Notes: generated by a model not told the origin, from the sequence alone. Positions 353 through 45,758 are shown, counted from the first letter of the stretch. The stretch is 64,000 nucleotides of DNA from Alphaproteobacteria bacterium (GCA_026225415.1 JAMFSS010000006.1:161046-225045), one strand, 5' to 3'. Numbers and translations are program-made.

Positions 353-2383
353 TTATTGGATAAGTGCGCCCAACAAAGCGCGCAACACGGCGGCGCAGAT
401 CAGGATAAGCGCCAGAAAGCTGCTGATGGATGCGGCCATCGGTTTGCCTGCGCCGCGCACCACACTTTCGCGGTTGTTGATTTTGGCTTCCATCGCATTG
501 ATTTCTTTTTGGGTGTTCAGATACAATAAACGCGCCGCGATAAAATCCTGACGGTCGCGTTCCATGCGGCGTTGATCATCGACCAGACGCAACAGCGACG
601 ACAGATTGCCGCTCTTGATCGTTTCCTGTGCCTGTTTTTTCAAATGATCGCGCAAGGCTTTGCTGAGGAAACGGCGCAAGGCAGGGTCGACAATGGAAGA
701 CAACCAACCGGCAAGCGAAGGCAGGTTCTCGGGCCCGTGGCGGTTCTGCATTTCGGCATACAGATTAAGCAAACCCAAGCCACGCGCCAAAGACCCTTCG
801 GGCGCCATCATGGCCGAGAAAAACGAGTCGCTGCGTTTATCGCGCACGATAAGGAAGGCGGCAATATGCCTGTCCATCGCCTCTTTGGGGCGGTTGCCTG
901 CCCCCGCGATGCGTTCCAACGCGGCCATCATCATTTTGGGTGTCGTTACATATTGGCCGCGTAAAATCGGGCTTTGGCAGGGCAGGCCGGGATTAAGTTC
1001 ATAGGTGACGCGTTCGATACCATTGCCGAACGAAGCTTTTTCGATAATGCCTTTCATGCGCTCGAAAGCCTGGCCCAGCGAAATAAAATCGCCCTTGCCG
1101 TCTTTTTGCATCTGTATCCACAAAGTCACCAGCTGGCTTGCGATAATTTCGGCAAGCGCCGGCAAATTTTGCGGATCAAACGATGTTTCGGCCAGCAAGG
1201 CCGCGATACCCGTGGGCATGGCGGAAATGCCGCGATAACGGATGGGCAAGGACGGGCTAAGCGCGATACAAACGCGGGTTACCAGCTGATCTTCATAATG
1301 GGTCGCTTTGCCGCCGGATTTCAAATCATGGATAACGCGTTCCACATCATGGGCGCGGTCTTCGTCGTTCATCGCGCGGCGCAACCATTTATGCAGCGAT
1401 TCATTTTCGATAACTTTGGCGGCTTCGGCCACATTGCCCGACAGCGCCAGCGCCAAAGGCGCTATCTGCCAATATTCCTTGCCGCCAAAATCAAAATGGC
1501 GCGACGAACGTTTGCCGGCGTCCGAACTTTTCGGCGTCATGCGGCGGCCATTCAGCCATTGTTCCAGATCATTCGCCGACCAGCGTTGATTGGAATCATC
1601 CGCCAGAAGCCCGCGCAAAAGCTCGATATGCGTTGTCGATAAACGGTGATTGCCGATAAGCGCGCCGAAACTGCCGCGCTGCATTTTCAGATCAATAATC
1701 GCCGCGTCATCCATATCCTGTAACGGGTTGCGCCCGATGACCATAAGCGCCAGCGTAACGCCAAAGGCGTAACAATCATCGGCAGGCAACCCCATGCCGC
1801 GGCCAAGCGGCGAGGCCAAGGCGCGTTCGACCGGTTCAAACAAAATGGGTTGCCCCATGCCGGCGGGCGATGACAGGCATTCGCCGATTTGCGGCGGCGA
1901 CGCGTTGCCGATACGCCAGAAAATATTGGTGGGGCGGATACCGTTATGGACTATCCCGTAATTATTCAGGACAACCAGACTGTTGATCATCGGCGTGATG
2001 AAATGCTGATGCACCGCATCTTCGCTTAGGGGCGTGTGGGTTTCATTGATGGTGGCGAACATGCGCGGTGCCACCGGCCTTTGATAGACAAAGGCAAAGG
2101 CGCGGGTTCCATCCATCCATGTGATAACACCGGAATCGACAAGCCGGATGATGCCGGGGCTGTCGATATTGCGCATGATTTGCGCCATATCGCTGCGCGG
2201 CGGCAATGTCGATTGGCAGATAATGGCAAAATAACTGCTGGCGGCGTCAAAACGGCTGCGCGCGGCATAGGCGTTGCCGCCGGTGCTGTTAAATTCGGGC
2301 AGGGGCTGGGACGGGATAATCTCGATCTGAGACCCCAGCGGGATGCCGTTGGCTGTGCCATTTTGCGCGGTGTCGTAAGACAT
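353..2383 (-). CDS. protein-kinase-like (pseudokinase) domain protein with C-terminal transmembrane anchor
   Basis: 676 aa ORF. The N-terminal ~280 aa show kinase-fold landmarks but degenerate catalytic motifs (HNGIRPTNIFW in place of HRDLKPxN, no clear VAIK lysine or DFG). The extreme C-terminus is hydrophobic (MAASISSFLALILICAAVLRALLGALIQ). Confidence 0.6.
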   Translation of the reverse strand: MSYDTAQNGTANGIPLGSQIEIIPSQPLPEFNSTGGNAYAARSRFDAASSYFAIICQSTLPPRSDMAQIMRNIDSPGIIRLVDSGVITWMDGTRAFAFVYQRPVAPRMFATINETHTPLSEDAVHQHFITPMINSLVVLNNYGIVHNGIRPTNIFWRIGNASPPQIGECLSSPAGMGQPILFEPVERALASPLGRGMGLPADDCYAFGVTLALMVIGRNPLQDMDDAAIIDLKMQRGSFGALIGNHRLSTTHIELLRGLLADDSNQRWSANDLEQWLNGRRMTPKSSDAGKRSSRHFDFGGKEYWQIAPLALALSGNVAEAAKVIENESLHKWLRRAMNDEDRAHDVERVIHDLKSGGKATHYEDQLVTRVCIALSPSLPIRYRGISAMPTGIAALLAETSFDPQNLPALAEIIASQLVTLWIQMQKDGKGDFISLGQAFERMKGIIEKASFGNGIERVTYELNPGLPCQSPILRGQYVTTPKMMMAALERIAGAGNRPKEAMDRHIAAFLIVRDKRSDSFFSAMMAPEGSLARGLGLLNLYAEMQNRHGPENLPSLAGWLSSIVDPALRRFLSKALRDHLKKQAQETIKSGNLSSLLRLVDDQRRMERDRQDFIAARLLYLNTQKEINAMEAKINNRESVVRGAGKPMAASISSFLALILICAAVLRALLGALIQ

Positions 2384-5290: not shown

Positions 5291-8200
5291 TCAGGAGTGG
5301 GTCTTGTGTTTATGGTGGTCGGCGCCGAGCGCCATATAAATGGCGGGTACGACGAACAGGGTGAACAGGGTGCCGATTGCCAAACCGGATGCGATAACCA
5401 GACCCATATTATAACGCGATGCCGCGCCCGCGCCCGAGGCGAAGATAAGCGGCATGACGCCCAGAACCATCGCGGCTGTGGTCATAAGAATGGGGCGCAG
5501 ACGGATGCTGGTGGCGGCAATGATCGCTTCCAGTTTTGGTTTGTTTTCTTCTTCTTGCAGTTTGTTGGCGAATTCGGTGATCAAAATCCCGTGTTTGCTG
5601 ACCAATCCGATCAGGGTGATAAGCCCGACCTTGGTATAGATATTGATGCTGGCGCCGCCGAAACCCAGCGAGATGAAAAGTAACGCGCCCGAAATCGCCA
5701 TCGGCACCGAGATCAGAATGATCAACGGGTCGCGGAAAGATTCAAATTGCGCGGCCAATGACAGGAAGATGATGATGGTTGCCAGCACCAGCGTCATGTA
5801 AAACCCGCCGGATTCTTGCGAGATTTGACGGAATTCGCCGCCGTAATCGATGGTGTAACCTTCGGGCAGAGTATCCTTGGCCAGTTTTTGCAAGTAAGCC
5901 ATCGCATCGCCCGCGGCGACGCCCGGAAATTCCACGCCCTGAATGGTGGCGGAATTCAACTGTTGAAAATGGTTCAGCGATTCAGGGACGGTTTCGTTTT
6001 TCAACGTCACAAGCGTGGAAAGCGGAACCGAATTGCCGCTTTGGGTACGGATGTAATAATTATTCAACTGATCGGCGTTCAGGCGCGACGCTTGTTCGAC
6101 CTGCGGGATGACTTTGTAGGAACGGCCGCCAAAGCTGAAATAATTGACATAACCGCCCCCCAGCATGGATGACAGGGAACTGCCGACATCATCCATCGTT
6201 AGACCCAATTCCGCAGCCTTGTCGCGGTTGATTTCAACGGTGGTTTGCGGCTTGTCGACTTTCAAATCATTGTCGAGGAACAGGAACATGTGGCTCTGTA
6301 AGGCTTTGGCCAGAAAATCCCATGACACTTCGGCCACTTCGCTGAACGGTTTGGTGGATTTGATGACGAACTGCACAGGATAACCCTGGCTGCCCGGCAG
6401 TGGCGGCGGGTTGATAACGACGGAATTAAAGCCCGAGATGCTGCTGACATCTTTGGTTAGCAAACCTTGCAGTTGGGATGCGGTGCGCGTGCGCTTGTCC
6501 CACGGTTTGAAAACCAGACCGGCCAAGGAATTACCCGGCGCTTCGATCTGGAAGATGCTTTCGGTTTCGGGATAGGCCGCGAATTTTTGATAGACCTGAT
6601 GCGCATAGAATAATTTTTGTTCCAAGGTCGCGTTGGGCGCGGGGGTTTGCAGCGACAACAGATAGCCTTGGTCTTCGGGCGGCGCCAATTCGCTTTTTGC
6701 GGTGACATAAAACAAAGGAATACTGATGAAAATCAATGCGGCAAAAACATACGTGACCGGGCGAAATTTCAGGCTGCTGCGCAGAAGGCGTTCATAACGC
6801 GTGTGGATGTAATCGAAGCGCTTATCGATCCAGCCGACAATATTCTTTTCCCATTGTGGGCTTTGGTCGCGCGGTTTTAAAAAGATCGAGCAGAGCATCG
6901 GTGAGGAGGTCAGCGCGATGATGGCAGAGATAGTGACGGCGCCGACCAACGTAAAGGCAAATTCGGTGAAGAGCGCACCCGTCAGGTCGCCCTGAAAACC
7001 AATCGGCACATAGACGGCGATCAAAACAATCGTCATCGCGATAATCGGCCCCGCCAATTCGCGCGCCGCAAGCAGTGACGCATCGAGCGGCGATAGCCCA
7101 TCATCCAGATGGCGGTTGACATTTTCCACCACGATAATCGCGTCATCGACCACAAGCCCGATGCCAAGCACAAGCGCGAGCAGCGTCAGAAGATTGATGG
7201 AGAAACCGAACATCAACATCATGAACAACGCGCCAATCAACGACAAAGGAATGGCGATAACGGGGATAAGAACGGCGCGGGGCGAACCCAGGAAGGCGAA
7301 CACAACCAGCGTCACGATCAATATAGCTTCGATCAGGGTCATGACAACTTCGTGGATCGAGCTGTTCACGAAAACGGTCGAGTCATACACGATGCGGCTA
7401 TAGATGCCTTGCGGTTGTTGTCTTTGGATATCGGCAAAAACGCTGCGCACATCGGCGATAACGTTGAGCAGATTGGCGGCGGGCGCAATTTTAATGCCGA
7501 TATAAACGGCCTTTTTGCCATCGAATGAAACGCGGGATTCATAATCATCCGCGCCCAAGGTGACGTTGCCGACATCTTGCAAACGGACGATGCCGCCATT
7601 TTGTTGCTTGATGATCAGGTTACGGAATTCTTCAAGGCTGTGCAGGCCGGTTGATGCCGTGAGGGTGGCCTGAACCAATTGGCCCTTGGTGTTGCCAAGG
7701 CCGGAAATATAATCATTTTTGGTCAAAGCCGCGCTGACATCGCTGGCAGTCAGGCTGTAAGCGGCCAGTTTTTCGGGGTCCAACCACGCGCGCAACGCGA
7801 AATTCTGGCCGCCGATGACTTCTGCCGTTTGCACGCCGGTGACGGCCTGCAAACGCGGCTGCACAACGCGGGTTAAATAGTCGGTGATATCATTTTGCGG
7901 CAAGACATCGCTGTTAAAACCGACATACATCGCGTCGATTGTTTGGCCGATGGAGATGTTAAGGACAGGCTGTTGCGAACCGGGCGGAAGCTGGTTGAGG
8001 ATCGAGCTGACCTTGGTGTTGATTTCGGTAAGCGCTTTATCGCTGTCATAGTTCAAACGCAGATAGACGGAAATCGTGCTGACGCTGGTTTGGCTGTTCG
8101 ATGTGATGTAATCGATGCCGTTGGCTTGCGCGATGGCGTTTTCCAAAGGTGTCGTGATAAAGCCCGCGACGGTATCGGGGTCGGCACCGTAGTAAGTGGT

Positions 8201-8344
8201 GGTAACGGTGATAACTGCGTTTTCCGTATGCGGATATTGGTTGACCGGCAAGGCCAGATAGGCGCGTGCGCCAAGCACCAAAATCATCAAGGTGACGACG
8301 CTGGCCAATACGGGGCGGCGGATAAAAAGATCTGTGAATTTCAT
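5291..8344 (-). CDS. RND multidrug efflux transporter, AcrB/MexB family inner-membrane pump
   Basis: About 1017 aa from MKFTDLFIRRPVLA. Has the typical RND N-terminus, 12-TM architecture and large periplasmic loops. Confidence 0.9.
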   Translation of the reverse strand: MKFTDLFIRRPVLASVVTLMILVLGARAYLALPVNQYPHTENAVITVTTTYYGADPDTVAGFITTPLENAIAQANGIDYITSNSQTSVSTISVYLRLNYDSDKALTEINTKVSSILNQLPPGSQQPVLNISIGQTIDAMYVGFNSDVLPQNDITDYLTRVVQPRLQAVTGVQTAEVIGGQNFALRAWLDPEKLAAYSLTASDVSAALTKNDYISGLGNTKGQLVQATLTASTGLHSLEEFRNLIIKQQNGGIVRLQDVGNVTLGADDYESRVSFDGKKAVYIGIKIAPAANLLNVIADVRSVFADIQRQQPQGIYSRIVYDSTVFVNSSIHEVVMTLIEAILIVTLVVFAFLGSPRAVLIPVIAIPLSLIGALFMMLMFGFSINLLTLLALVLGIGLVVDDAIIVVENVNRHLDDGLSPLDASLLAARELAGPIIAMTIVLIAVYVPIGFQGDLTGALFTEFAFTLVGAVTISAIIALTSSPMLCSIFLKPRDQSPQWEKNIVGWIDKRFDYIHTRYERLLRSSLKFRPVTYVFAALIFISIPLFYVTAKSELAPPEDQGYLLSLQTPAPNATLEQKLFYAHQVYQKFAAYPETESIFQIEAPGNSLAGLVFKPWDKRTRTASQLQGLLTKDVSSISGFNSVVINPPPLPGSQGYPVQFVIKSTKPFSEVAEVSWDFLAKALQSHMFLFLDNDLKVDKPQTTVEINRDKAAELGLTMDDVGSSLSSMLGGGYVNYFSFGGRSYKVIPQVEQASRLNADQLNNYYIRTQSGNSVPLSTLVTLKNETVPESLNHFQQLNSATIQGVEFPGVAAGDAMAYLQKLAKDTLPEGYTIDYGGEFRQISQESGGFYMTLVLATIIIFLSLAAQFESFRDPLIILISVPMAISGALLFISLGFGGASINIYTKVGLITLIGLVSKHGILITEFANKLQEEENKPKLEAIIAATSIRLRPILMTTAAMVLGVMPLIFASGAGAASRYNMGLVIASGLAIGTLFTLFVVPAIYMALGADHHKHKTHS

Positions 8345-8433
8345 GGCAATCCTATGTGTTGGCTCGCGAAGCCTTCGTGGCTTAGGTTCAATCCACAATC
8401 AGAGCATTTCATAAACAAGTGAGGATAATCGAC

Positions 8434-8516
8434 CCCCCACCTGCAAAAACTAAGACTTACGCCCCAAGAGCGTAAGCCTAAGTTTTTTGCTTCCTCCCCC
8501 ACAAGGGGGAGGGAAA
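8434..8516. repeat. ~85 bp double-hairpin repeat, copy B, in the MFP-RND intercistronic gap
   Basis: Near-identical to 4686..4769. Lies in the 230 bp gap between the MFP stop (8574) and the RND start (8344). Confidence 0.7.
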
Positions 8517-8573
8517 CCTCTAATCGTCATTCCCGACTTTTGCCTCGCCTCATCTATCGGGTGTATTGAGAAT

Positions 8574-9698
8574 TTATTGGTCTTGTGGCTTTGGATTGGA
8601 ATCCGCCGCTGGCTTGTTGTCGTTATTGATGACCACCGGCACATCATTGCGTAATTTAACCTGGCCGCTGGTGACGACTTCGTCGCCTTCCTGTACGCCG
8701 GAAAGAATGGTGACCAGATCGCCGCGCGTTTCGCCGGTTGTCACAACGCTTTGTTGAACGGTTGTTTGCGCTTTGCCGTCTTTGCCCTCGCCCTGTTTGA
8801 CCAGATAGACGACATTGCCATAGGTGTTAAACACAATCGCAGTTTGCGGCAGCGTAAGGGCGCGGTTGGTTTGTCCGGCATCGACCGTGACCGAACCGAA
8901 CATGCCGGGCAGAACTTTATGCTCGGCGTTATCAATAGTGGCACGAACGCCGATATTGCGTGTGGCTTCATCAATCTTGGAATTGATGGCGGTGATTTTG
9001 CCGGTAAAGCTTTGGCCTTCGACCGCGTCGCTGTTCATATGGACGGTTTGGCCAACGGTCAGGCGCGACAGCGATTGTTCGGGCAACATGAAATCCACAT
9101 AGATCGGGTCAAGCTGTTGCAAGGTGACAATCGTGGTGCCCGGTTGCAGATATTGGCCGACATCGACCTGACGAATGCCCAAATGTCCAGCGAAAGGCGC
9201 ACGAATGGTTTTTTTGTCGATGATTGCCTGTTGCGCGGCGACTTGCGCCTTGGCGTTTGCCAAGGCTGCGCTGTCGGTGTCGACTGTGGCCTGGCTGATC
9301 GCCTGCGATTTCAATTGCTTCATATCGCGGTCGAGCGTGATTTGCGTCAAATTCGCGCTGGCTTGTAAGGCGTGCAGTTGCGCCACTTCATCGGCATCGC
9401 GCAAATGAACCAACACGGCGTCTTTGTCGGCATCGCCTCCGGAATCGAACGAAACGCTTTCGACAATACCCGCGACTTCGGCGGATAAATCCGCGCCATT
9501 CACGGCGCGAAGCGTGCCGACTGCGGTTAATTGCGGTTGCCAATCCTGCATTTCGGCTTTGGCGGTCGAAACGGTGGGTGCCGAAAAACTGGATGCCATT
9601 TGCGCCATGCCCGCCTTCATCGCGTGCATTTTATACGCGCCGAATGCGGCAATAATAATTGCCACGGCAATCAACATAATGATCATACGTTTAATCAT
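8574..9698 (-). CDS. RND efflux periplasmic adaptor (membrane fusion protein, AcrA/MexA family)
   Basis: 374 aa with an N-terminal TM anchor and coiled-coil hairpin. Immediately upstream of the RND pump. Overlaps the OMF gene by 4 nt. Confidence 0.85.
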   Translation of the reverse strand: MIKRMIIMLIAVAIIIAAFGAYKMHAMKAGMAQMASSFSAPTVSTAKAEMQDWQPQLTAVGTLRAVNGADLSAEVAGIVESVSFDSGGDADKDAVLVHLRDADEVAQLHALQASANLTQITLDRDMKQLKSQAISQATVDTDSAALANAKAQVAAQQAIIDKKTIRAPFAGHLGIRQVDVGQYLQPGTTIVTLQQLDPIYVDFMLPEQSLSRLTVGQTVHMNSDAVEGQSFTGKITAINSKIDEATRNIGVRATIDNAEHKVLPGMFGSVTVDAGQTNRALTLPQTAIVFNTYGNVVYLVKQGEGKDGKAQTTVQQSVVTTGETRGDLVTILSGVQEGDEVVTSGQVKLRNDVPVVINNDNKPAADSNPKPQDQ

Positions 9699-25009: not shown

Positions 25010-25106
25010 ACATTTAATTATTTTGTGCGATTGAGGAAGCCGGTAAAAAATAATTAGAGATAAACCTTTAAATATCATAGGTTTGACCAAACAAGGACGG
25101 AATATT

Positions 25107-26240
25107 ATGAGTGCCATTAAAGATACATTGCCGCGCATGGTTGCCCTGGCGCACGAACGTTCCGAGCTGTCGCGGATTCAGCTCGCGGGAATGTTGGCCG
25201 ATATTTTCCTGTTCAATGATTCGCATCTGTCTTTGCGCGAAGAAGAATTGATCAATGAATTGATCGATCAGTTGATGAAATCCGGCACCGTCCAGGTGCG
25301 CAGCCAGTTGATGGAAAAATTCGCCGATGTGTCGCGCATGCCGCGCCGCATCGCCACGCATATTGCCCGCGATGATATCGCCATCGCCCGTCCTGTTCTC
25401 ATGGCCTGCCCCACTTTGACCGATGATGATTTGATTCAGGTCGTTGAAGAACAGGGTGTTTCGCATGCGGCCCTGATCGCCACGCGCCAACAAATCAGCG
25501 AAGCCGTGGCGGATGCCTTGGTGACGACTGGCGACGTGCGTGTTATGCAAGCGGTTGCCGAAAATCTGGGCGCGCATCTGAGCCAGAAAGCGGTTGAAGC
25601 GGTGGCGGATGCCGCGCGTTACAGCGCCGAATTGCGCGCGCCCATTTTGCATCGACCCGAAATTACTGCCGACACGGCGATGAAGCTATATTGGTGGGTT
25701 GAACAGGATCTGCGCCGTTATACGTTGAAGCGTTTTGGCATTGGGTCGGGTCAGGTCGACAAGGCTTTGGCGATGACCATCACGACTTTCCTGAATGACC
25801 ATGTCAACCAGAAGGGCAATGACGAGGTGATGACGCAAATCGCCGAATGGATGGAAAAACACGAAGCGCTGACGCTTCAGGTTTTGCCGCAGGTTCTGCG
25901 CATGGGGCATTTCCGCTTGTTCAATATTTTGCTGGCGCGTCTGGCGAATTTGAATTTGTCGTTGATCGACACGATTATGGCCGAAGCCGGTGGCCGCGGT
26001 TTGGCGGCGGTGTGCCGCGCGGTTGGCATGGACAAGCCCGGCTTTGTTTCGTTGTTTTTATTGGCGCGTGGTGGCCGTCCGGGCGATCAGGTTGTGCATC
26101 CGCGTGAATTGTCTTTGGCATTGGAAGCGTTTGACCGTATGAGCCCCGCGATTGCCAAGGATTTATTGCATAGCTGGTCGATGAACCCCGATTATTTTGC
26201 GAAACATAATCAGGAAGCGTCGCGGGATGCGCTGCATTAA
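25107..26240 (+). CDS. DUF2336 family protein
   Basis: About 378 aa all-helical repeat protein typical of alphaproteobacterial DUF2336. GGA-containing RBS before the ATG at 25107. Confidence 0.55.
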   Translation: MSAIKDTLPRMVALAHERSELSRIQLAGMLADIFLFNDSHLSLREEELINELIDQLMKSGTVQVRSQLMEKFADVSRMPRRIATHIARDDIAIARPVLMACPTLTDDDLIQVVEEQGVSHAALIATRQQISEAVADALVTTGDVRVMQAVAENLGAHLSQKAVEAVADAARYSAELRAPILHRPEITADTAMKLYWWVEQDLRRYTLKRFGIGSGQVDKALAMTITTFLNDHVNQKGNDEVMTQIAEWMEKHEALTLQVLPQVLRMGHFRLFNILLARLANLNLSLIDTIMAEAGGRGLAAVCRAVGMDKPGFVSLFLLARGGRPGDQVVHPRELSLALEAFDRMSPAIAKDLLHSWSMNPDYFAKHNQEASRDALH

Positions 26241-37889: not shown

Positions 37890-38728
37890 TGTGTGTTCCC
37901 CAAAACATAATCGCGCAATGCCTGCGTTACTTCGGGATCATGCCCAAAAAACGCCTGAAACGAAGGCCGCGCCTGATGCAGCAACATGCCCAACCCGTCA
38001 ATCGCCGCAAACCCGCGTGCGCGCGCTTGCGCCAATAACGGCGTTTCCAACGGCGCATAAATAATATCATTCACGGTTGCGGTTGGCGGCAAAGCATCAA
38101 GCGATAAAAGCAGTTCCGGCTGCCCCTTCATACCTAATGACGTTGTATTGACTAATAATTCTATGCCCATTTGTGCTTTTTCCGCATCTTGCCATGCAAC
38201 CGGCGTAATCCGGCATTGCGGTGTGGCAAAATCCTGTGCCAGCTTTTCGGCATGGGCAATCGTGCGGTTGGCAATGCGGATTTCGCTTAAACCCATTTTC
38301 ATCAATGCGTAAATAATGGCGCGTGCCGCCCCACCCGCGCCTAAAACCAATGCCGCGCCATTTTTGGGAACATAGCCGGACAACAAAAGATTTTGCGTAA
38401 AGCCATAGGCGTCCGTATTACGTCCCTGCAAGGAACCATCCGCCCCCACCACAACCAGATTAACCGCGCCAATGTCACGTGCCGTTTCATCCAAACTATC
38501 CATAATCGCACAGGCGGCCTGTTTATGCGGAATGGTCAGATTAACCCCGCAAAAACCTTTTATGTGCAAGTCGCGCAAAAGATCGGCCAGGTTTTCCGGT
38601 GGCGTGGGCATGGCTTCATAGCCCCCGTCAATGCCACAGGCATGCAGCCAGAACCCATGCAATCGCGGCGACAGCGAATGTTTGGCGGGCCACCCGACGA
38701 TGGCGGCTTTTTTGACAGGATGGGGCAT
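37886..38728 (-). CDS. aroE: shikimate dehydrogenase
   Basis: 280 aa. NAD(P)-binding GAGGAARAI. aroE-coaE arrangement with a 4 nt overlap. Confidence 0.85.
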   Translation of the reverse strand: MPHPVKKAAIVGWPAKHSLSPRLHGFWLHACGIDGGYEAMPTPPENLADLLRDLHIKGFCGVNLTIPHKQAACAIMDSLDETARDIGAVNLVVVGADGSLQGRNTDAYGFTQNLLLSGYVPKNGAALVLGAGGAARAIIYALMKMGLSEIRIANRTIAHAEKLAQDFATPQCRITPVAWQDAEKAQMGIELLVNTTSLGMKGQPELLLSLDALPPTATVNDIIYAPLETPLLAQARARGFAAIDGLGMLLHQARPSFQAFFGHDPEVTQALRDYVLGNTQ

Positions 38729-38833
38729 GGAAACGAAAAATTGGGGAAAAAAGGAATGGGGATATTATGGTATAATGTAAAATAAATCGCTATTATCTTT
38801 TGCGCTCCCGCCTCTTATCCCCTGTCCCCGTCT

Positions 38834-39472
38834 ATGCTTCTTCTGTACATCCCCGATAACGCCCTGCGCGAAGCTGTGGTCGAACAAATGACGGTTGCCA
38901 AGCTGGGCGATATTATTTTGTGCGATACGCCGCAAAACCTGTTGAAAAAAGCCGAAAGCGACAAGGACGGCATTATCATTATCGATGGTGATGATAAAAA
39001 GGCGACTGGCTTGGCTCAATCCTTGCCGGGGTTGGCATCCACGCTTCTGGTGCTGGGCGGATTAGGCGAAAATGAAAATGTCACTGAAACATTCACCAAA
39101 CCCCTGCGGCTTGGCCATTTTATCACGCGTCTGCGTTATTACGCCGAAACGGCACCCTTGCTGCGCAACCAGACTATCATTTTTGGATCCTATCGTTTGG
39201 AGCCGCAAAACCGCCGGCTGTGCCGCACCGATAAGGAAGAGATTATAAAATTGACGGAAAAAGAAACCGCCTTGCTGGTTTTTCTGGGCACGCGCGGTGT
39301 GCCTGCCACGCGACAGGAAATTCTGGCCACCGTCTGGGGCTATGATGAACGTATCGATACGCACACGCTGGAAACCCATATATACCAATTGCGCCGCAAA
39401 TTAGACGAAAGCGGCGGCGAATTTCTGGTTAATGAAGCAGGTGCCTATCGTCTGCAACAAAGGGGTGTGTGA
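38834..39472 (+). CDS. OmpR/PhoB-type winged-helix regulator with atypical receiver-like N-domain
   Basis: C-terminal trans_reg_C-like region (LTEKETALLVFL...TVWGYDERIDTHTLETHIYQLRRKL). N-terminal acidic pocket only partially conserved. First gene of a six-gene coupled operon. Confidence 0.7.
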   Translation: MLLLYIPDNALREAVVEQMTVAKLGDIILCDTPQNLLKKAESDKDGIIIIDGDDKKATGLAQSLPGLASTLLVLGGLGENENVTETFTKPLRLGHFITRLRYYAETAPLLRNQTIIFGSYRLEPQNRRLCRTDKEEIIKLTEKETALLVFLGTRGVPATRQEILATVWGYDERIDTHTLETHIYQLRRKLDESGGEFLVNEAGAYRLQQRGV

Positions 39473-40053
39473 TGCGGCGTTTCTTGGCGCTTGGGGTTCT
39501 GTGTGTTTTGGCGGCGTGCGGCGGGGGGGCGGGTTCGTCTTCATCGCATCAGGTTTCCGGCAGGGGTTTGGCCAAAACAACGCCCGATGGCGACGCCACG
39601 CGGCGCATTGTGATGGTCTACCCCTATACTCACGAAAAAATTGATGTGGTTTATTATCATGATGGTTCTTACGACCAACGTGCTTTGGCTTCCATTAATG
39701 AACTTATGCGCGACCGGCATGAAAATATCGCCGGTAAAATCGACCCCGAATTGATCGATTATATGGTCGATATCCGTAAAAGGCTGGGGTTGCCCGCCAC
39801 GGTGCCGTTTCAGGTTTTGTCGGGTTTCCGCACACCCGAAACCAATGCCAGCCTGGCGGTCACCAATGCCAATGTCGCCAAGGAATCGTTGCACATGCAT
39901 GGTTGGGCGGTCGATTTCCGTATCGACAGCGTGAATGGCAAGGCGATGTGCGAAATCGCCAAAACCATGCAGCGCGGCGGCGTTGCTTTCTATCCCGAAG
40001 ATAATCATATTCATATCGATCTTGGTAATATCCGCACCTGGCATGGTTCATAA
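39472..40053 (+). CDS. DUF882 (YcbK-like, peptidase M15 superfamily) lipoprotein
   Basis: Lipobox LAAC. Conserved H..D...H-like zinc ligands (HMHGWAVDF...HIHID). Start overlaps the upstream stop by 1 nt. Confidence 0.7.
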   Translation: MRRFLALGVLCVLAACGGGAGSSSSHQVSGRGLAKTTPDGDATRRIVMVYPYTHEKIDVVYYHDGSYDQRALASINELMRDRHENIAGKIDPELIDYMVDIRKRLGLPATVPFQVLSGFRTPETNASLAVTNANVAKESLHMHGWAVDFRIDSVNGKAMCEIAKTMQRGGVAFYPEDNHIHIDLGNIRTWHGS

Positions 40054-41391
40054 ATGACTCAATCCTCCATCGACTTTCTTTCTGATCTGATCGGCAAAGC
40101 CATCAAGGCGGGCGCGGATTCCGCCGATGCTTTGTTGTCGGACTCGACGGATTTATCGGTGTCGCTGTCCAACGGCAAAATTGAAAGTCTGGAACGGTCG
40201 GAATCCGCAGATTTAGGTTTGCGCGTTTTCATCGGGCATCAGCAAGCGGTGGTGTCGAGCAGCGACCGCAGTACCAAAGCGATTGATGAATTGATCGCCC
40301 GCGCGATTGCCACCGCCAAACTTGCGCCCGAAGATCAATTTTGTGGCATCGCTTTGGCGGATGAAATAGGCAAAAATATTCCCAAACTGGAAATGGCCGA
40401 CACGGCCGAATTTTCTGCCGAACAACTTATCGTGCAGGCGCGCATTACCGAAGATGCCGCGCGTTCTGTGGCAGGTGTCACCAATTCCGACGATATCGGC
40501 GCGGGTTGGGGCGAAAGCCGCACCACATTGGCCGCCAGCAACGGTTTTGTGGGCTCTTACGCCCGCACAGGATACAGCCTGAGCGCGGCGGTGATTGCAG
40601 GAACCGGCACAGGAATGGAACGCGATTATGATTACGCGCACCGTGTTTTTGCGGGCGACATGCCTGCCGCAGATGTCATCGGACGCAAGGCGGGCGAACG
40701 GGCGGTGCGGCGTTTAAACCCGCGCAAAATGCCGACCGCGCGTGTGCCGGTTTTCTTTGACCCGCGTATTGCCGGTGGGTTGATCGGTTCCCTGATCGGC
40801 GCGATTTCCGGCGCATCGGTGGCACGTAAAACCAGTTTTTTGAAAGACGCGCTCGGTAAGAAAATTTTTGCTGACGGCATCACCGTTATCGATGATCCGC
40901 ACCGCGCCCGTGGCCAACGGTCACGCGCGTTTGATGCCGAAGGGATTCTGCCACAGAAACGCAAATTGATTGATGCGGGTGTGCTGACAACCTGGTTGCT
41001 CGATCTCAGTTCGGCACGGCAATTGGGATTGCACAGCACCGGGCACGCGTCGCGTTCGACCGGCGGGCCGCCTTCGCCTTCCGCCAGTAATGTATATGTC
41101 GAGGCGGGCACCGCGACGCCCGCAGAATTGATGCGCGATGTGGCATCGGGTTTTTATGTGACCGAAACCATGGGTATGGGCGTTAATGGCGTGACGGGCG
41201 ATTACAGCCAGGCGGCATCCGGTTTCTGGATTGAAAATGGGGAAATTCTTTTTCCCGTGAACGAAATGACTATCGCCGGTAATTTAAAAGACATGTTTTT
41301 GAATATGTCCGTTGCCAATGATCTGAATTTCGAACGCGGTATCGATGTGCCGACAGTGCGCGTCGAAGGCATGACCATAGCGGGGACCTGA
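40054..41391 (+). CDS. pmbA: PmbA/TldE family metalloprotease
   Basis: 445 aa. N-terminus MTQSSIDFLSDLIGKAIKAGADSADALL is typical of PmbA. Confidence 0.85.
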   Translation: MTQSSIDFLSDLIGKAIKAGADSADALLSDSTDLSVSLSNGKIESLERSESADLGLRVFIGHQQAVVSSSDRSTKAIDELIARAIATAKLAPEDQFCGIALADEIGKNIPKLEMADTAEFSAEQLIVQARITEDAARSVAGVTNSDDIGAGWGESRTTLAASNGFVGSYARTGYSLSAAVIAGTGTGMERDYDYAHRVFAGDMPAADVIGRKAGERAVRRLNPRKMPTARVPVFFDPRIAGGLIGSLIGAISGASVARKTSFLKDALGKKIFADGITVIDDPHRARGQRSRAFDAEGILPQKRKLIDAGVLTTWLLDLSSARQLGLHSTGHASRSTGGPPSPSASNVYVEAGTATPAELMRDVASGFYVTETMGMGVNGVTGDYSQAASGFWIENGEILFPVNEMTIAGNLKDMFLNMSVANDLNFERGIDVPTVRVEGMTIAGT

Positions 41392-43769
41392 TGAAACGGG
41401 GATTAAAGAAATTCTTGCTCGCAACCTGTGCCGTTCTTGTTGGCGTCCCCCTTCTTGCGCTTGGTGGTGTTGCCTTTATCTTTAAACACGCCGAACCGGA
41501 TTACACAGGAACGGTGCAAATGACCGGCCTGTCGGCGCCCGTCAATGTCTATCGCGATGCCTATGGCATCCCGCATATTTTTGCCGACAACATGAATGAC
41601 GCGGCGCGTGCCCTTGGTTACGCGCATGCCAGCGAACGTCTGTTTCAAATGGAAACACAACGCCGCGCGGGGCAGGGACGGCTGGCCGAAATTTTGGGCG
41701 CAGATACCGTTGGCATCGATAAATTCACCCGCACTTTGGGTCTCTACAAATTGGCGCAAAGCAGCTATGCCGCCATGTCGCCCGAAGCCCAAGGCTATTT
41801 CCAAGCCTATACCGACGGCGTTAATGCATGGCTGCAAACCCATGCCCATGCTTTGTCGCCAGAATTTGTTTTGTTGGGCATCAAGCCAGAACCCTGGACA
41901 CCGGCGGATTCCGTGGTGTGGGGCAAATTGATGGGGCTGGAACTCAGCCATAATTATCATCTGGAAATGTTGCGCGCGCAATTGGCGGGCAAGATTTCGC
42001 CTGAACAAATGCAATGGTTATTCCCGATGCCGCCCGCCGGCACGCCGGTCACGACGCAACCCGTTGTCGAACAAACCTCTGCGCGCGATGTGAACAACAA
42101 ACTCGCCGCCTTGCTTGGCCTGTCACATGCCGCATCGAATGAATGGGTTGTTGGCGGGTCGCGCACTGTCACCGGCAAACCGATGCTGGCCAATGACCCG
42201 CATCTGGATTTGGGCGCGCCCATTTTATGGTATCTGGCGCGTATCGTAACCCCGCAGGGCAGTGTGAAGGGCGCGACCGTTCCCGGTTTACCGATTATGC
42301 TGTTGGGCGAGAACGATCATATGGCGTGGGGATTTACAACAACCGGCAGCGATGTCGAAGATTTGTTCGTTGAAACCACAGACCCGCAAGACCCCACGCA
42401 TTATCTAACGCCGGATGGCAGTGTGCCGTTTGATACGCATAATGAAATTATCCGTGTGAAAAATGCACCCGATGTAACCATTGCGGTGCGCACCACGCGC
42501 CACGGCCCTGTGTTATCCGACATTAATGCCGATATGGCGAAACTGGCGGGTAATGGCAAAATAATGGCATTGGCCTTCACCGGTTTGGGCGGTGATGATC
42601 GCACGTCGGAATCATTGATGCTTATCAACCGCGCGAAAAACGCCGATCAATTTATGGCGGCGCTACAGCTTTATCAAACGCCGCCGCAAAATATCGTTTA
42701 TGCCGATGATGCGGGCGCGTTCGGTTATATCAATCCGGGCTTGGTGCCGGTGCGCAAAAAAGGCGATGGGCTGATGCCCGCTGATGGCGCATCGGGTGAT
42801 TATGATTGGATAGGCACTATACCACTGGACGCCGATCCGCAGATTGCCAATCCCGAAGCCGGTTTTGTGTTCAATGCCAATAACGCGGTGGTGGCCGCGG
42901 ATAACCAAAATTATTTTGGCCAGGATTGGGAAGAACCCTATCGCGCGCGTCGTCTGCAACAAATTTTCACTGCCACCGACAAATTTACGCTGCCGAAAAT
43001 CGCGGCGATGCAGGCCGATACTTTGTCTGTCGCTGCCACCGATTTTCTGCCTTGGCTGGTGACGATTGAACCCGACTCAAATAATCCAAGGGGCGACCGC
43101 GCCAAACAGGCGATTGCGATGCTGGATAAATGGGATGCGGTGATGGATAAAGACCGGCCCGAACCGGCGATTTTCGAAGCATGGCTCTATCAATTCCATC
43201 ATCACATGCTGGATGAAAAAACCGGCGTCGATATGTCCGAAAAAGGCCCGTTTGCCGCCATGACGCTGGCTGATCTGGTTAAAAATCATGCGGATGATTG
43301 GTGCGGCGATGCCGATTGCCGCAAACTTATCGCACAAAGTTTTGATGACGCGCTGGATATGATGGCAGAGCGGCAAGGCGAAGATATGACAGCGTGGCGT
43401 TGGGGTCGCGAAAATATCGCGCAGCTGACCCACAAATTCTACAGCCATATTCCCGTGTTGAAGGATATCAGCGACCTGAGCGTGGAAAGCAGCGGCGATT
43501 TTTATACGCTCGACCGTGGCGGCGGTTTCGATAACCCACCCGAAAAACCCTTTGCCCGCACGCATGGCGGCGGCTTCCGCGGCATATATGATCTGGCCAA
43601 TCCCGATGCGTCTTTGTTCATGATCAGTACAGGCGAATCCGACCATCTTTTCGGCGGCCATTACGGCGATCTGGTGAATGCGTGGGTGAATGTCAAAGCC
43701 ATCACTTTGTCAGGCAGCGCGGATGATTTCCGCAAAAACGGCGCGGATGATCTGGTGTTGATCCCATGA
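41391..43769 (+). CDS. penicillin acylase family (Ntn hydrolase) protein
   Basis: 792 aa. N-terminal TM/signal. Family-typical segments (YGIPHIF, SNEWVVGG at the beta-subunit nucleophile site). TGATG overlap with pmbA. Confidence 0.8.
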   Translation: MKRGLKKFLLATCAVLVGVPLLALGGVAFIFKHAEPDYTGTVQMTGLSAPVNVYRDAYGIPHIFADNMNDAARALGYAHASERLFQMETQRRAGQGRLAEILGADTVGIDKFTRTLGLYKLAQSSYAAMSPEAQGYFQAYTDGVNAWLQTHAHALSPEFVLLGIKPEPWTPADSVVWGKLMGLELSHNYHLEMLRAQLAGKISPEQMQWLFPMPPAGTPVTTQPVVEQTSARDVNNKLAALLGLSHAASNEWVVGGSRTVTGKPMLANDPHLDLGAPILWYLARIVTPQGSVKGATVPGLPIMLLGENDHMAWGFTTTGSDVEDLFVETTDPQDPTHYLTPDGSVPFDTHNEIIRVKNAPDVTIAVRTTRHGPVLSDINADMAKLAGNGKIMALAFTGLGGDDRTSESLMLINRAKNADQFMAALQLYQTPPQNIVYADDAGAFGYINPGLVPVRKKGDGLMPADGASGDYDWIGTIPLDADPQIANPEAGFVFNANNAVVAADNQNYFGQDWEEPYRARRLQQIFTATDKFTLPKIAAMQADTLSVAATDFLPWLVTIEPDSNNPRGDRAKQAIAMLDKWDAVMDKDRPEPAIFEAWLYQFHHHMLDEKTGVDMSEKGPFAAMTLADLVKNHADDWCGDADCRKLIAQSFDDALDMMAERQGEDMTAWRWGRENIAQLTHKFYSHIPVLKDISDLSVESSGDFYTLDRGGGFDNPPEKPFARTHGGGFRGIYDLANPDASLFMISTGESDHLFGGHYGDLVNAWVNVKAITLSGSADDFRKNGADDLVLIP

Positions 43770-45010
43770 AACGCGTTGCCGTTCTTATCGATTTACCGCG
43801 TGGTGCGGGCGCCGGCGGCCATGTGATTTATTGGGAACGGCTGGCGCAAGCGGCGGCACGCGAAGAAATGCCGCTCGATCTGACCTTTTATTTTTCCGGC
43901 ACAGGGGATGATGAAAAATTGTCGCCGCATGTGCGTTACCGTTATCTGCCACCGGTTTTCAGCACAGCGAAATTAAAATTCCTGCCCTATCTTCCGGCAC
44001 ATACCGACCTTGCGCCCTTTCACCCGCAATTGGCGGAAGAACTGGCTGATTATGATGTTATCCATACGACAGATGCGTATTTCGCCTTTGCCAAAACGGC
44101 GGAACGCGTGGCGCGGTGGCACAACATTCCTTTGGTGACGTCGCTTCATACCGACACGCCCGCTTATTCCGAAATTTTTGCCCGCGCAACGGTCGAAAAT
44201 ATCTTTGGCGGTTTTGTGGGGTCGTGGCTGGATATCACATTCAATATCGCCGCGCGCGAACGCGACTCAAAAGCCAGAAGGCTGGCATCGCATATCAAGG
44301 CAACCGATGCGGCGATCGTGTTGCGCAAAACCGATGCCGAACTTGCCGAAACACTGATCGAACCTAAAAAAGTATCGCGTCTTCATCTGGCCGTGAACAA
44401 GGATGTATTCGTGCCCAATGACACGGCGCGGGAGGCTATCGAAAAAACCTATGGTATTCCTTCGGGTAAATTTATCGTGCTATTTGTGGGACGCGTCGAT
44501 ATCGGCAAAAATATGCCGTTGCTTATGGATGCGTGCGAACAAATGCTGGCGCAAAATATCCCGCTTCATCTGCTTGTCGTCGGTCAAGGCCCCTTGCAGG
44601 ACGAAGTCAAAAAGAGACTGGGCGTTAACGTGACGCTGACGGGGCAATTAACGCCTGAAAAACTGGCGCCTTGTTATGCGGCTGCCGATTGTCTGGCGCT
44701 TGTGTCCGATGTGGAAATTGGCGGGCTTGTGGCTCTGGAAGCATTGTCCTGTGGTTGCCCTGCCCTTGTTTCGCGCATCAGTGATGTGGCACAGGCGTCA
44801 GACGCCACCGATGTCATGCAAATGGTCGAAAGCAACAGCGATGATTGGGCGCAGGCTCTCAGCAGCTTGGCGCAGGATAAGGAAAAACAGGCGCAGATGC
44901 GGCAAGCCGCGTTGGGGTATCGGCGCGATAAACTGGCCGATTGGACAGGCATCCTGAAAAATGATTTCATGGCCGTCTGGCAAAAACTGGAGAAAACCGA
45001 TGTTCGGTAA
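43766..45010 (+). CDS. glycosyltransferase family 4 (GT-B) protein
   Basis: C-terminal GT4 motif EIGGLVALEALSCGCPALVS. ATGA overlap with the upstream acylase gene. Confidence 0.8.
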   Translation: MKRVAVLIDLPRGAGAGGHVIYWERLAQAAAREEMPLDLTFYFSGTGDDEKLSPHVRYRYLPPVFSTAKLKFLPYLPAHTDLAPFHPQLAEELADYDVIHTTDAYFAFAKTAERVARWHNIPLVTSLHTDTPAYSEIFARATVENIFGGFVGSWLDITFNIAARERDSKARRLASHIKATDAAIVLRKTDAELAETLIEPKKVSRLHLAVNKDVFVPNDTAREAIEKTYGIPSGKFIVLFVGRVDIGKNMPLLMDACEQMLAQNIPLHLLVVGQGPLQDEVKKRLGVNVTLTGQLTPEKLAPCYAAADCLALVSDVEIGGLVALEALSCGCPALVSRISDVAQASDATDVMQMVESNSDDWAQALSSLAQDKEKQAQMRQAALGYRRDKLADWTGILKNDFMAVWQKLEKTDVR

Positions 45011-45758
45011 AAGAATCCTTATCGCCGTCGCACACCCCGATGATGAAATCGTTGCCTGTGCGGCCTCTGTGGCGCGGGCACGCGCGGCGGGTGCAACGGT
45101 GTCCGCGCTTTATCTGACCAATGGCTGTATTCCGCAAACTGAAATGTGGCGCTGGCAACGTAAAAACTATGTGGCCTGCGTCGCCAAACGCCGCGCCGAA
45201 GCCGAAGCCGTCGCTCTGGCACTGGGCATACAACCGGTGGGATGGGCCGATCGTCCCGCGCGGCATTTATGGCGCAATCTCCCCGATGTGCAACACGAAC
45301 TGGATGCCGCAATATCCTTGTATCGCCCCGACCAATTATGGGTTCCGGCCTATGAAGGCGGCAACCCCGATCATGACGCGCTTAACGCGTTGTGCTTTGG
45401 TTTCAAAATGCGGCTCAGTGTTTTGGAATTTGCCGAATATAATTTCTTTGGCGGCGTGGCGCGGTCGAACGTGTTTATTTCGTCCGATGAAACGGTGCGC
45501 ACGATAACGCTGACACCCGAAGAACAAAAGGCCAAACGTGCCGCACTGGCCAGCTATAAATCCGAACGCGGCAATCTGTCATCAATGCGCGTCGAGCAGG
45601 AAGCCTATCGCCCTATTGGTGCCTATGACTATAACCACCCGCCGCATCAAGGAAAATTATGGTATGCGCGTTTTCAATGGGTGCCGTTTAAACATCCCCG
45701 CGTTGATTTCACCAGGCCAGAAGAAGTGTTGAAGGCAATCGCTGCGTTCAAATCATGA
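45000..45758 (+). CDS. PIG-L/LmbE family N-acetylglucosaminyl deacetylase
   Basis: VAHPDDEI motif near the N-terminus. Start overlaps the GT4 stop by 11 nt. Confidence 0.75.
   Translation: MFGKRILIAVAHPDDEIVACAASVARARAAGATVSALYLTNGCIPQTEMWRWQRKNYVACVAKRRAEAEAVALALGIQPVGWADRPARHLWRNLPDVQHELDAAISLYRPDQLWVPAYEGGNPDHDALNALCFGFKMRLSVLEFAEYNFFGGVARSNVFISSDETVRTITLTPEEQKAKRAALASYKSERGNLSSMRVEQEAYRPIGAYDYNHPPHQGKLWYARFQWVPFKHPRVDFTRPEEVLKAIAAFKS

Follow-up and report, generated by a model that had tools for sequence, protein, structure and literature searches.

A mosaic six-gene cluster in an alphaproteobacterial genome and its GT4–PIG-L pair, a candidate module for membrane-lipid glucosaminylation

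We describe a cluster of 6 genes at positions 38834-45758 of a 64,000-nucleotide stretch of DNA from an Alphaproteobacteria bacterium (GCA_026225415.1, JAMFSS010000006.1:161046-225045); this whole stretch is referred to as the window. On balance, we favor the view that the 6 genes most likely constitute one transcription unit, that they are a mosaic of 4 modules and not one pathway, and that the last 2 genes, encoding a family 4 glycosyltransferase (GT4) and a PIG-L/LmbE-family deacetylase (PIG-L), glucosaminylate a membrane lipid, likeliest a bacteriohopanepolyol. The first module would consist of an atypical winged-helix regulator and a DUF882/M15 lipoprotein peptidase; the second, of PmbA, a housekeeping protease subunit; the third, of a membrane-anchored periplasmic amidase of the penicillin-acylase family, as a variable accessory; and the fourth, of the GT4–PIG-L pair.

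In the mechanism that we propose, the retaining GT4 would act at the cytoplasmic face of the inner membrane, where it would attach N-acetylglucosamine (GlcNAc), with UDP-GlcNAc as donor, to a membrane lipid's polyol side chain; the likeliest acceptor would be bacteriohopanetetrol (BHT) or a related polyol. The PIG-L zinc enzyme would then deacetylate the sugar, and the head group would become a cationic glucosaminyl one. In other lineages, the adjoining HpnL, a flippase-like protein, and HpnN would take over the product. More speculatively, the penicillin-acylase-family protein may act in the periplasm on an N-acyl form of the amino sugar, trimming or remodeling it. Hopanoids rank among the major membrane lipids of bacteria and are important geological biomarkers; genetics accounts for only part of their side-chain chemistry.

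Architecture and modularity of the six-gene cluster

Open reading frames and Pfam matches reveal 6 plus-strand genes with zero intergenic DNA across 6.9 kb. The first gene (38834-39472) encodes an atypical OmpR-type winged-helix regulator in which Pfam recognizes Trans_reg_C only. It is followed by genes for a DUF882/M15 zinc peptidase lipoprotein (39472-40053, with an alternative GTG start at 39469; DUF882/Peptidase_M15) and a cytoplasmic PmbA (TldE)-type metalloprotease subunit with 3 PmbA_TldD domains (40054-41391). The second half of the cluster encodes a penicillin-acylase-family N-terminal nucleophile (Ntn) hydrolase, hereafter the acylase (41391-43769; Penicil_amidase, 688 bits), the retaining GT4 of GT-B fold (43766-45010; Glycos_transf_1 and Glyco_transf_4), and the PIG-L/LmbE-family zinc de-N-acetylase (45000-45758; PF02585). 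The junctions are, in order, TGATG (1-nt overlap), TAAATG (0), TGATG (1), ATGA (4), and an 11-nt overlap. An earlier note, generated by a model from the sequence, had described these co-directional genes, their families, and overlaps of 1, 0, 1, 4, and 11 nt, and all are borne out by the reading of frames and junctions and by Pfam. A publicly available copy of the locus, with genes called independently, has the same PIG-L start, at the ATG of the 11-nt overlap, which gives a protein of 252 aa; at its 3' end, the PIG-L gene overlaps the convergent rseP by 6 nt.

Tight packing has to be read against its background. Of the 44 co-directional junctions in the whole window, 14 are overlapping or abutting; outside the cluster, the count is 9 of 39. 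The tightly joined genes include unrelated pairs, metK/trmB and coaE/aroE, and the frequency of such junctions here counts against reading the cluster as a unit. A single tight junction is thus ordinary in this compact genome, and since unrelated genes are equally packed, translational coupling alone is no evidence of shared function. The argument for one transcription unit is the succession of 5 tight junctions, together with the same packing in the orthologous cluster L001 (overlaps of 4, 4, 0, and 1 nt); from these, we infer that the 6 genes are most likely co-transcribed. The sole non-coding DNA upstream of them is a 105-bp gap between the divergent aroE and regulator genes; in and beside it lies a plus-strand promoter-like site, the consensus match TTGACA-18-AAAAAT (38712..38741). 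Promoter-like sites in this region are no commoner than in shuffles, so the site is weak evidence. Hairpin and promoter-like matches inside the 6 genes are likewise consensus matches only, and all the hairpins fall in coding sequence.

Comparison across genomes separates the modules. We aligned 25 GT4 homologs and used them to fetch 80 loci from species-representative genomes, added more by exact protein look-up, and mapped the 6 proteins and their neighbors by tblastn over 87 related loci. There was room downstream of GT4 in 79 loci, and in 67 of these, GT4 is followed by an adjacent, co-directional PIG-L; they span Methylocapsa, Roseiarcus, Magnetospira, and metagenome-assembled genomes (MAGs) labeled Rhodospirillales, Stellaceae, and Caulobacteraceae; in 65 loci, the pair occurs without the regulator, DUF882, or PmbA. 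The order regulator-DUF882-PmbA-GT4-PIG-L is found only in the window's clade, which comprises 19 loci from MAGs labeled Alphaproteobacteria, Rhodospirillaceae, and 'Bdellovibrionales' (the NCBI placement of Micavibrio). Even there, the acylase gene stands between PmbA and GT4 at only 4 loci: the window, L005, L012, and L071. Conversely, the regulator and DUF882 genes occur as a pair alone in distant lineages (L089, 8001-9229; L090, 8001-9238; the equivalent of 38834-40053 in the window). Since its members are conserved separately, the cluster is best described as a splice of separate units: the regulator with DUF882, PmbA, a facultative acylase, and GT4 with PIG-L. Judged by synteny, this last pair is the only deeply conserved unit among the 6 genes.

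Within the window's clade, the block coaE-aroE-regulator-DUF882-PmbA-(acylase)-GT4-PIG-L is inverted between 2 sub-clades, with the rseP and ate-trmB flanks swapped. Loci such as L001, L010, and L013 carry one orientation, and the window, L005, L012, and L071 the other; the acylase is present only in the latter.

These observations bear on a proposal of the earlier note, that all 6 genes cooperate in one pathway to a glucosamine (GlcN)-containing glycoconjugate under the atypical regulator. We regard this as improbable. It would account for the 5 consecutive overlapping or abutting junctions, for a core of regulator-DUF882-PmbA-GT4-PIG-L that is kept in ~16 clade loci, even inverted as one block, and for the adjacency of PmbA and GT4 in the sister locus L061. 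It is contradicted by the solitary regulator–DUF882 pairs, by the many loci where GT4–PIG-L stands without the other genes, and by the absence of the acylase from most of the clade, and unrelated housekeeping genes of this genome are packed as tightly. In addition, we know of no chemistry that connects M15 or PmbA peptidases with a GlcN-lipid. Thus, the tight architecture seen in the earlier note is real, whereas conservation of the cluster as a unit is largely refuted by the synteny comparison, and with it the idea of a single six-gene pathway. A six-gene coupled operon can be a lineage-specific splice, which calls for caution in operon-based pathway inference in compact genomes.

The GT4–PIG-L pair and its hopanoid context

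The link to hopanoids was found by clustering neighboring genes and then applying curated hidden Markov models (HMMs). The PF03706 membrane protein beside the pair is HpnL, and each of the cases tested exceeds the TIGR03476 cut-off of 195.65 (301.9 bits in L003, 304.2 in L087, 286.1 in L078, 253.6 in L064, 220.7 in L076, and 203.8 in L073). HpnE and HpnH are encoded 0.3 to ~7 kb upstream of the pair in loci from Roseiarcus and Methylocapsa. L079 has the order HpnH-IspH-HpnA-GT4-PIG-L; L078 has an MlaA-like lipoprotein, GT4, PIG-L, HpnL, and HpnH, followed by HpnE, HpnD, and Dxs. In Magnetospira sp. QH-2, whose genome is complete, the order is HpnA-HpnL-GT4-PIG-L-HpnN, adjoining squalene-hopene cyclase (SHC). 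SHC and each of the Hpn proteins named there exceed their curated cut-offs; the overlaps at the HpnL/GT4/PIG-L/HpnN junctions measure 4, 11, and 4 nt. Outside the window's clade, hpn genes are present within the fetched flanks of 26 of 65 loci; for comparison, shc is present in only ~23% of alphaproteobacterial genomes (PMC12583986). Because several distinct hpn-linked architectures exist, the association does not come down to a single inherited coincidence. One HpnA candidate, in L042, was identified as GalE and taken out of the counts.

In a published synteny table, the Magnetospira row reads '...hpnA hpnL - - hpnN...' (10.1101/2025.07.29.667474, supplementary file 8); GT4 and PIG-L, which lie between hpnL and hpnN, are exactly the 2 unlabeled genes. 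A survey of hopanoid genes states that no further candidate genes are evident near hpn clusters (PMC12583986), and in the full-text literature, we found no paper linking hopanoids with LmbE, PIG-L, or GT4, nor Micavibrio with hopanoids. The presence of a GT4–PIG-L pair inside hpn clusters appears to be new; its enzymatic logic is already known.

Other neighbors recur as well. At 18 loci, a divergent gene just upstream of the pair encodes a secreted family, here termed c3sec, whose called proteins measure ~320-530 aa and match nothing in Pfam or NCBIfam; its neighbor is often an alpha/beta hydrolase. Examples are L003 8786-9745, L087 8346-9929, and L006 13993-15060, all on the minus strand. L006 also has a RhuM/Fic-domain gene (11238-12299) inserted between GT4 and PIG-L. 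A search of the whole window found no PF03706/HpnL gene, c3sec, or alpha/beta hydrolase.

Both proteins are sound members of their families. GT4 matches Glycos_transf_1 with 88.8 bits (Pfam gathering score 26.4) and Glyco_transf_4 with 35.9 bits (28.5), and its E317-x7-E325 motif is invariant in 25 aligned orthologs. The AlphaFold model displays a standard two-Rossmann GT-B fold (pLDDT 87.3), whose best PDB matches are MshA (3c4q; TM-score 0.77/0.81) and BshA (0.66-0.76), at 16-21% identity; WaaG and PimB' are also among the structural matches. PIG-L matches PF02585 with 75.7 bits (gathering score 28.2), and its AHPDDE and NPDH sequences align with HPDD and HPDH of TT1542, such that the metal motifs are intact. 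We weighed a Pfam 'GT4-conflict' match (30.9 bits) as a pointer to a defense system and rejected it: the match overlaps the generic GT4 domains, and there are no nearby defense genes.

From the model and motifs, GT4 is predicted to transfer GlcNAc or another N-acetylhexosamine to a lipid acceptor. GlcNAc is the expected donor given the de-N-acetylase partner, the structural matches to MshA and BshA, and the intact EX7E and AHPDD/PDH motifs. In this respect, the logic of the earlier note, in which a GT4 sugar transferase paired with a PIG-L/LmbE deacetylase points to a GlcN-containing glycoconjugate, holds up in both the structural matches and the recurrent adjacency of the 2 genes.

Family membership does not extend to any curated equivalog. 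GT4 scores 80.9 bits against MshA (TIGR03449; cut-off 462.5), 52.2 against BshA (TIGR03999; 273.7), and 70.1 against GpgS (NF053787; 480); PIG-L scores 34.3 against BshB1 (TIGR04001; 182.5) and 21.3 against the Mca/MshB-type model (TIGR03446; 277). Neither protein matches HpnI (TIGR03472) or HpnK (TIGR03473) at E-values up to 0.001. Since it fails the MshA, BshA, BshB1, and GpgS cut-offs and has no HpnI or HpnK match, we treat the pair as a functional analog of these systems and not as a member.

The same comparisons make it barely credible that the pair starts the synthesis of a mycothiol-like or bacillithiol-like low-molecular-weight thiol, one of the products suggested in the earlier note. 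The pair shares its 2 families with MshA/MshB and BshA/BshB, and MshA and BshA are the top structural and NCBIfam matches of GT4, but the MshA, BshA, and BshB1 scores lie far under their curated cut-offs, no MshC/MshD/BshC-type cysteine ligase or acetyltransferase is among the recurrent neighbors, and the context is one of membrane-lipid genes. We also judge it quite improbable that the pair adds GlcNAc to the lipopolysaccharide (LPS) core, lipid A, or another cell-wall polysaccharide and then deacetylates it, in the manner of WabH/WabN. The synthesis of LPS cores commonly involves GT4 enzymes, the structural matches include WaaG and PimB', KdsB lies 2 to 3 genes off in a few loci, and DUF882 and the neighboring rseP are envelope genes; yet MshA and BshA, not WaaG, are the top structural matches. 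The earlier note had raised an LPS/O-antigen locus as an alternative home for the 2 genes. No LPS or O-antigen family recurs among the neighbor clusters present in at least 5 loci; what recurs are hpn genes, HpnL, the secreted c3sec protein, and the acylase.

What can be said of the acceptor comes from the N-terminal domain of GT4. Residues 62-86 (nt ~43949-44023) include the invariant segment FSTAxLKFLPYxPAHTDL, which has no secondary structure in the model (pLDDT 50-58); P63, S66, L70, F72-Y75, P77, T80-L82, and H86 are invariant in 25 orthologs. Based on the model, this segment is a candidate lipid- or membrane-contacting loop, specific to the family, in the acceptor domain. The N-terminal (acceptor) domain is 53-58% identical to that of hpn-linked orthologs, compared with 38-43% for the C-terminal (donor) domain and ~60% within the window's own clade. 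A better-conserved N-terminal acceptor domain is unusual among GT4 enzymes, and its identity to hpn-linked orthologs, near the within-clade level, argues that the acceptor is unchanged in the window. Over their full lengths, the window proteins share 46-49% (GT4) and 52-60% (PIG-L) identity with most of the HpnL-linked clade.

A glycerolipid is the other acceptor to be weighed. The pair could make a glucosaminyl glycerolipid, GlcN-phosphatidylglycerol or GlcN-diacylglycerol, as part of a charge system of the GpgSDF/HexSDF type, with proximity to hpn genes reflecting a shared membrane-remodeling regulon. We consider this unlikely, although it has substance. GpgS, another GT4, has a deacetylase and a PF03706 flippase as its partners (PMC12713373), GpgF and HpnL share a flippase-like superfamily, the NF053787 model (GlcNAc-phosphatidylglycerol synthase) is the first or second NCBIfam match of the window GT4 and its orthologs, and no hpn genes are seen in the window's clade. 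Yet the NF053787 matches, at 61-75 bits, fall far short of the cut-off of 480 and extend over the C-terminal domain only, the deacetylase is of a different family (PIG-L, not COG3233), and the pair is embedded in hpn operons in Magnetospira, L078, and L079. A bacteriohopanepolyol acceptor is the reading that fits this placement.

Several further observations weigh against that reading. The hpn-linked loci are phylogenetically related, such that the 26 of 65 are not independent events. The 64-kb window has no homologs of HpnA, HpnE, HpnH, or HpnL, nor, at the 19 loci of its clade, is any hpn gene closer than 10 kb to the pair. Identity between the window and Magnetospira pairs is only 38% for GT4 and 45% for PIG-L. 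In L020, L085, L086, and L088, a GT4 ortholog lacks an adjacent PIG-L. Two surveys from 2025-26 state that the functions of HpnA, HpnB, and HpnL are not known (PMC12583986; 10.1101/2025.07.29.667474), so adjacency to HpnL is no proof of a hopanoid substrate. Finally, the donor and acceptor of the pair are predicted from context and fold only. The earlier note had listed a glycolipid among the possible products. Context favors this reading in a hopanoid-linked form that the note did not consider; the window itself lacks the hpn neighbors on which that form is based.

L020, L085, L086, and L088 represent a sub-lineage of GT4 orthologs; in 3 of them, GT4 is divergent from a PGM/PMM-family gene, probably glmM, and the order tilS-ftsH-glmM recurs near GT4 in several lineages. 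We set aside this gene as a link to donor supply, since ancestral tilS-ftsH-glmM synteny is the more likely explanation.

It is a possibility of somewhat less than even weight that GT4 and PIG-L are an unrecognized hopanoid side-chain module, an alternative or addition to HpnI/HpnK, that produces an alpha-linked amino-sugar bacteriohopanepolyol for export via HpnL and HpnN. GT4 enzymes retain the configuration of the donor sugar, and GT2 enzymes invert it; the product should therefore be alpha-linked, the opposite anomer to that of HpnI. If so, 2 enzymes would be added to the hopanoid pathway, HpnL would gain a testable substrate, a new anomer would be predicted, and the scoring of genomes for hopanoid head-group capacity would change. 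The module could also explain, as a lead and not as evidence, 2 sets of lipids: the later-eluting isomers of BHT-glucosamine and of BHT-cyclitol ether (BHT-CE), whose structures are undefined, for instance in Roseiarcus fermentans (PMC12583986), and the CE-type lipids made by 4 species without hpnI, hpnJ, or hpnK (PMC12583986). In the window's Micavibrio-like lineage, the module would have left the hpn cluster and joined an Ntn amidase and an envelope-peptidase/regulator pair, implying that head-group remodeling is coupled to envelope maintenance.

The remaining modules and the rest of the window

The regulator matches Trans_reg_C (52.9 bits) and has no Response_reg match in Pfam at E-values up to 0.01; at least 120 homologs among the matches listed all carry PF00486 only. 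Aligned with the canonical regulator of the same window, it keeps Asp51, the equivalent of the phospho-acceptor, and Lys89, has one Asp in place of the DD pocket, and has Gly in place of Thr; both Asp51 and Lys89 are conserved across its family. The degenerate-looking receiver domain described in the earlier note is consistent with these results, Asp51 and Lys89 notwithstanding. Distant homologs of the regulator (44-45% identity) still precede DUF882, with no PmbA, GT4, or PIG-L after them. Thus, by its gene order, the regulator–DUF882 pair is a conserved two-gene cell-envelope module in its own right. A DUF2336 gene lies near the pair in L089; the window also encodes a DUF2336 protein (25083-26240, plus strand), as well as a 676-aa protein with a faint protein-kinase signal (353-2383, minus strand).

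The peptidase matches PF05951 with 142.4 bits, well above the gathering score of 27, and scores 144.8 bits against the NCBIfam model for MepK (NF053624), under the equivalog cut-off of 185. Its translation displays a signal peptide, the lipobox LAAC, and intact zinc motifs. PmbA behaves similarly, with 333 bits against NF008268 (cut-off 438) and 3 PmbA_TldD domains spanning the full length; its partner TldD was not found in the 64-kb window. Outside the window's clade, PmbA precedes GT4 only at the sister locus L061; the PmbA–GT4 adjacency therefore predates the clade. L061 itself, from a termite-gut alphaproteobacterial MAG, contains a tight IspH-PmbA-GT4 run without PIG-L (7720-11299). The regulator–DUF882 pair and PmbA look like envelope and housekeeping genes that became neighbors of GT4–PIG-L in the window's lineage.

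The acylase matches PF01804 over its full length (687.9 bits, residues 50-780). Alignment with the beta-chains of over 20 solved acylases begins at residue 249 of the window protein, the Ser of the sequence SNEW; Ser249 is the predicted Ntn nucleophile at the N-terminus of the beta-chain. An apparently uncleaved N-terminal signal-anchor predicts that the catalytic domain is periplasmic. The nearest solved relatives are D-succinylase (7eby) and glutaryl-7-ACA acylase (4hst), the best at only 238 bits.

An acylase gene is found near GT4–PIG-L in 11 loci in total and in at least 3 arrangements: the 4 in-operon cases and 7 on the opposite strand in another clade. Outside the operon, it either forms an immediate divergent pair with GT4 (L063) or is found on the opposite strand a few kb upstream, in the company of an alpha/beta hydrolase and a secreted protein of no known family. 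Judged by these arrangements, it is a variable accessory gene that recurs near the pair. A functional tie is plausible; the enzyme could, for instance, take an N-acyl group off the amino sugar.

The rest of the window is core chromosome. The cluster is flanked upstream by metK, trmB, ate, coaE, and aroE and downstream by rseP, a canonical OmpR-type regulator, and mnmE; elsewhere lie an RND efflux set, hemC/D/Y, PBP2-MreC, gpsA, dnaN, and tsf. Between 5291 and 12735, the RND efflux operon encodes an AcrB-like protein (5291-8398), a membrane-fusion protein (8574-9698), and an outer-membrane factor (9695-11209), beside a divergent TetR regulator (11363-11980) that is followed after 5 nt by a glycerophosphodiester phosphodiesterase gene. 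From 12000 to 16000, GC content falls to 46-48%, compared with ~53% elsewhere, and this stretch may be a small integrated island; it includes tRNA-Leu(GAG) (12806-12892), a Fic/SoFic-like gene (13217-14338), and an open reading frame without a family (14680-15522).

Comparison with known systems

Two of the accessory proteins have characterized relatives. The window peptidase resembles Escherichia coli MepK (YcbK), a murein L,D-endopeptidase, in its PF05951 domain, its H-x6-D and H-x-H zinc motifs, and its export to the envelope. Unlike MepK, it is a lipoprotein and not Tat-secreted, and an atypical OmpR-like regulator always precedes it. The acylase resembles the Ntn acylases (7eby, 4hst, and PvdQ) in its full-length PF01804 match and in the predicted Ser at the start of the beta-chain, but it scores only 81 against the PvdQ equivalog cut-off of 950. 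To our knowledge, proximity to GT4–PIG-L has not been reported for any characterized member of the acylase family.

For the pair itself, MshA/MshB, BshA/BshB, and PIG-A/PIG-L offer one comparison: the same 2 superfamilies act in the same order, transfer and then deacetylation. The window pair differs from them in its low equivalog scores, in the missing downstream thiol enzymes, and in its family-specific N-terminal acceptor domain.

One precedent for the proposed mechanism is provided by GpgS, GpgD, and GpgF, which synthesize glucosaminyl-phosphatidylglycerol in Pseudomonas aeruginosa, and the analogous HexSDF of Clostridioides difficile (PMC12713373). In the Gpg system, a GT4 GlcNAc transferase, a deacetylase, and a PF03706 flippase-like protein produce a cationic lipid head group (PMC12713373). 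Their deacetylase belongs to COG3233 and not to PIG-L, the window has no flippase gene, and orthologs of the window pair are found in hpn clusters, not beside phospholipid genes.

The other precedent is HpnI/HpnK, of which the pair would be a non-homologous analog. As far as the work of Schmerk et al. 2015 is presented in a later survey, HpnI and HpnK, with HpnJ and HpnL, form the route to BHT-glucosamine and the cyclitol ether (PMC12583986). HpnI is GT2-type and HpnK YdjC-type (PMC12583986). The families are unrelated: the window pair combines a GT4 of GT-B fold with PIG-L/LmbE, not GT2/GT21 with YdjC. The pair also differs in having no adjoining HpnJ, in the opposite anomer predicted for its product, and, in the window, in its neighbors, none of which is an hpn gene. 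The likeness is in the chemistry and the setting: GlcNAc would be placed on a hopanoid polyol and then de-N-acetylated, and orthologs of the pair share a neighborhood of HpnL, HpnA, HpnH, and HpnN.

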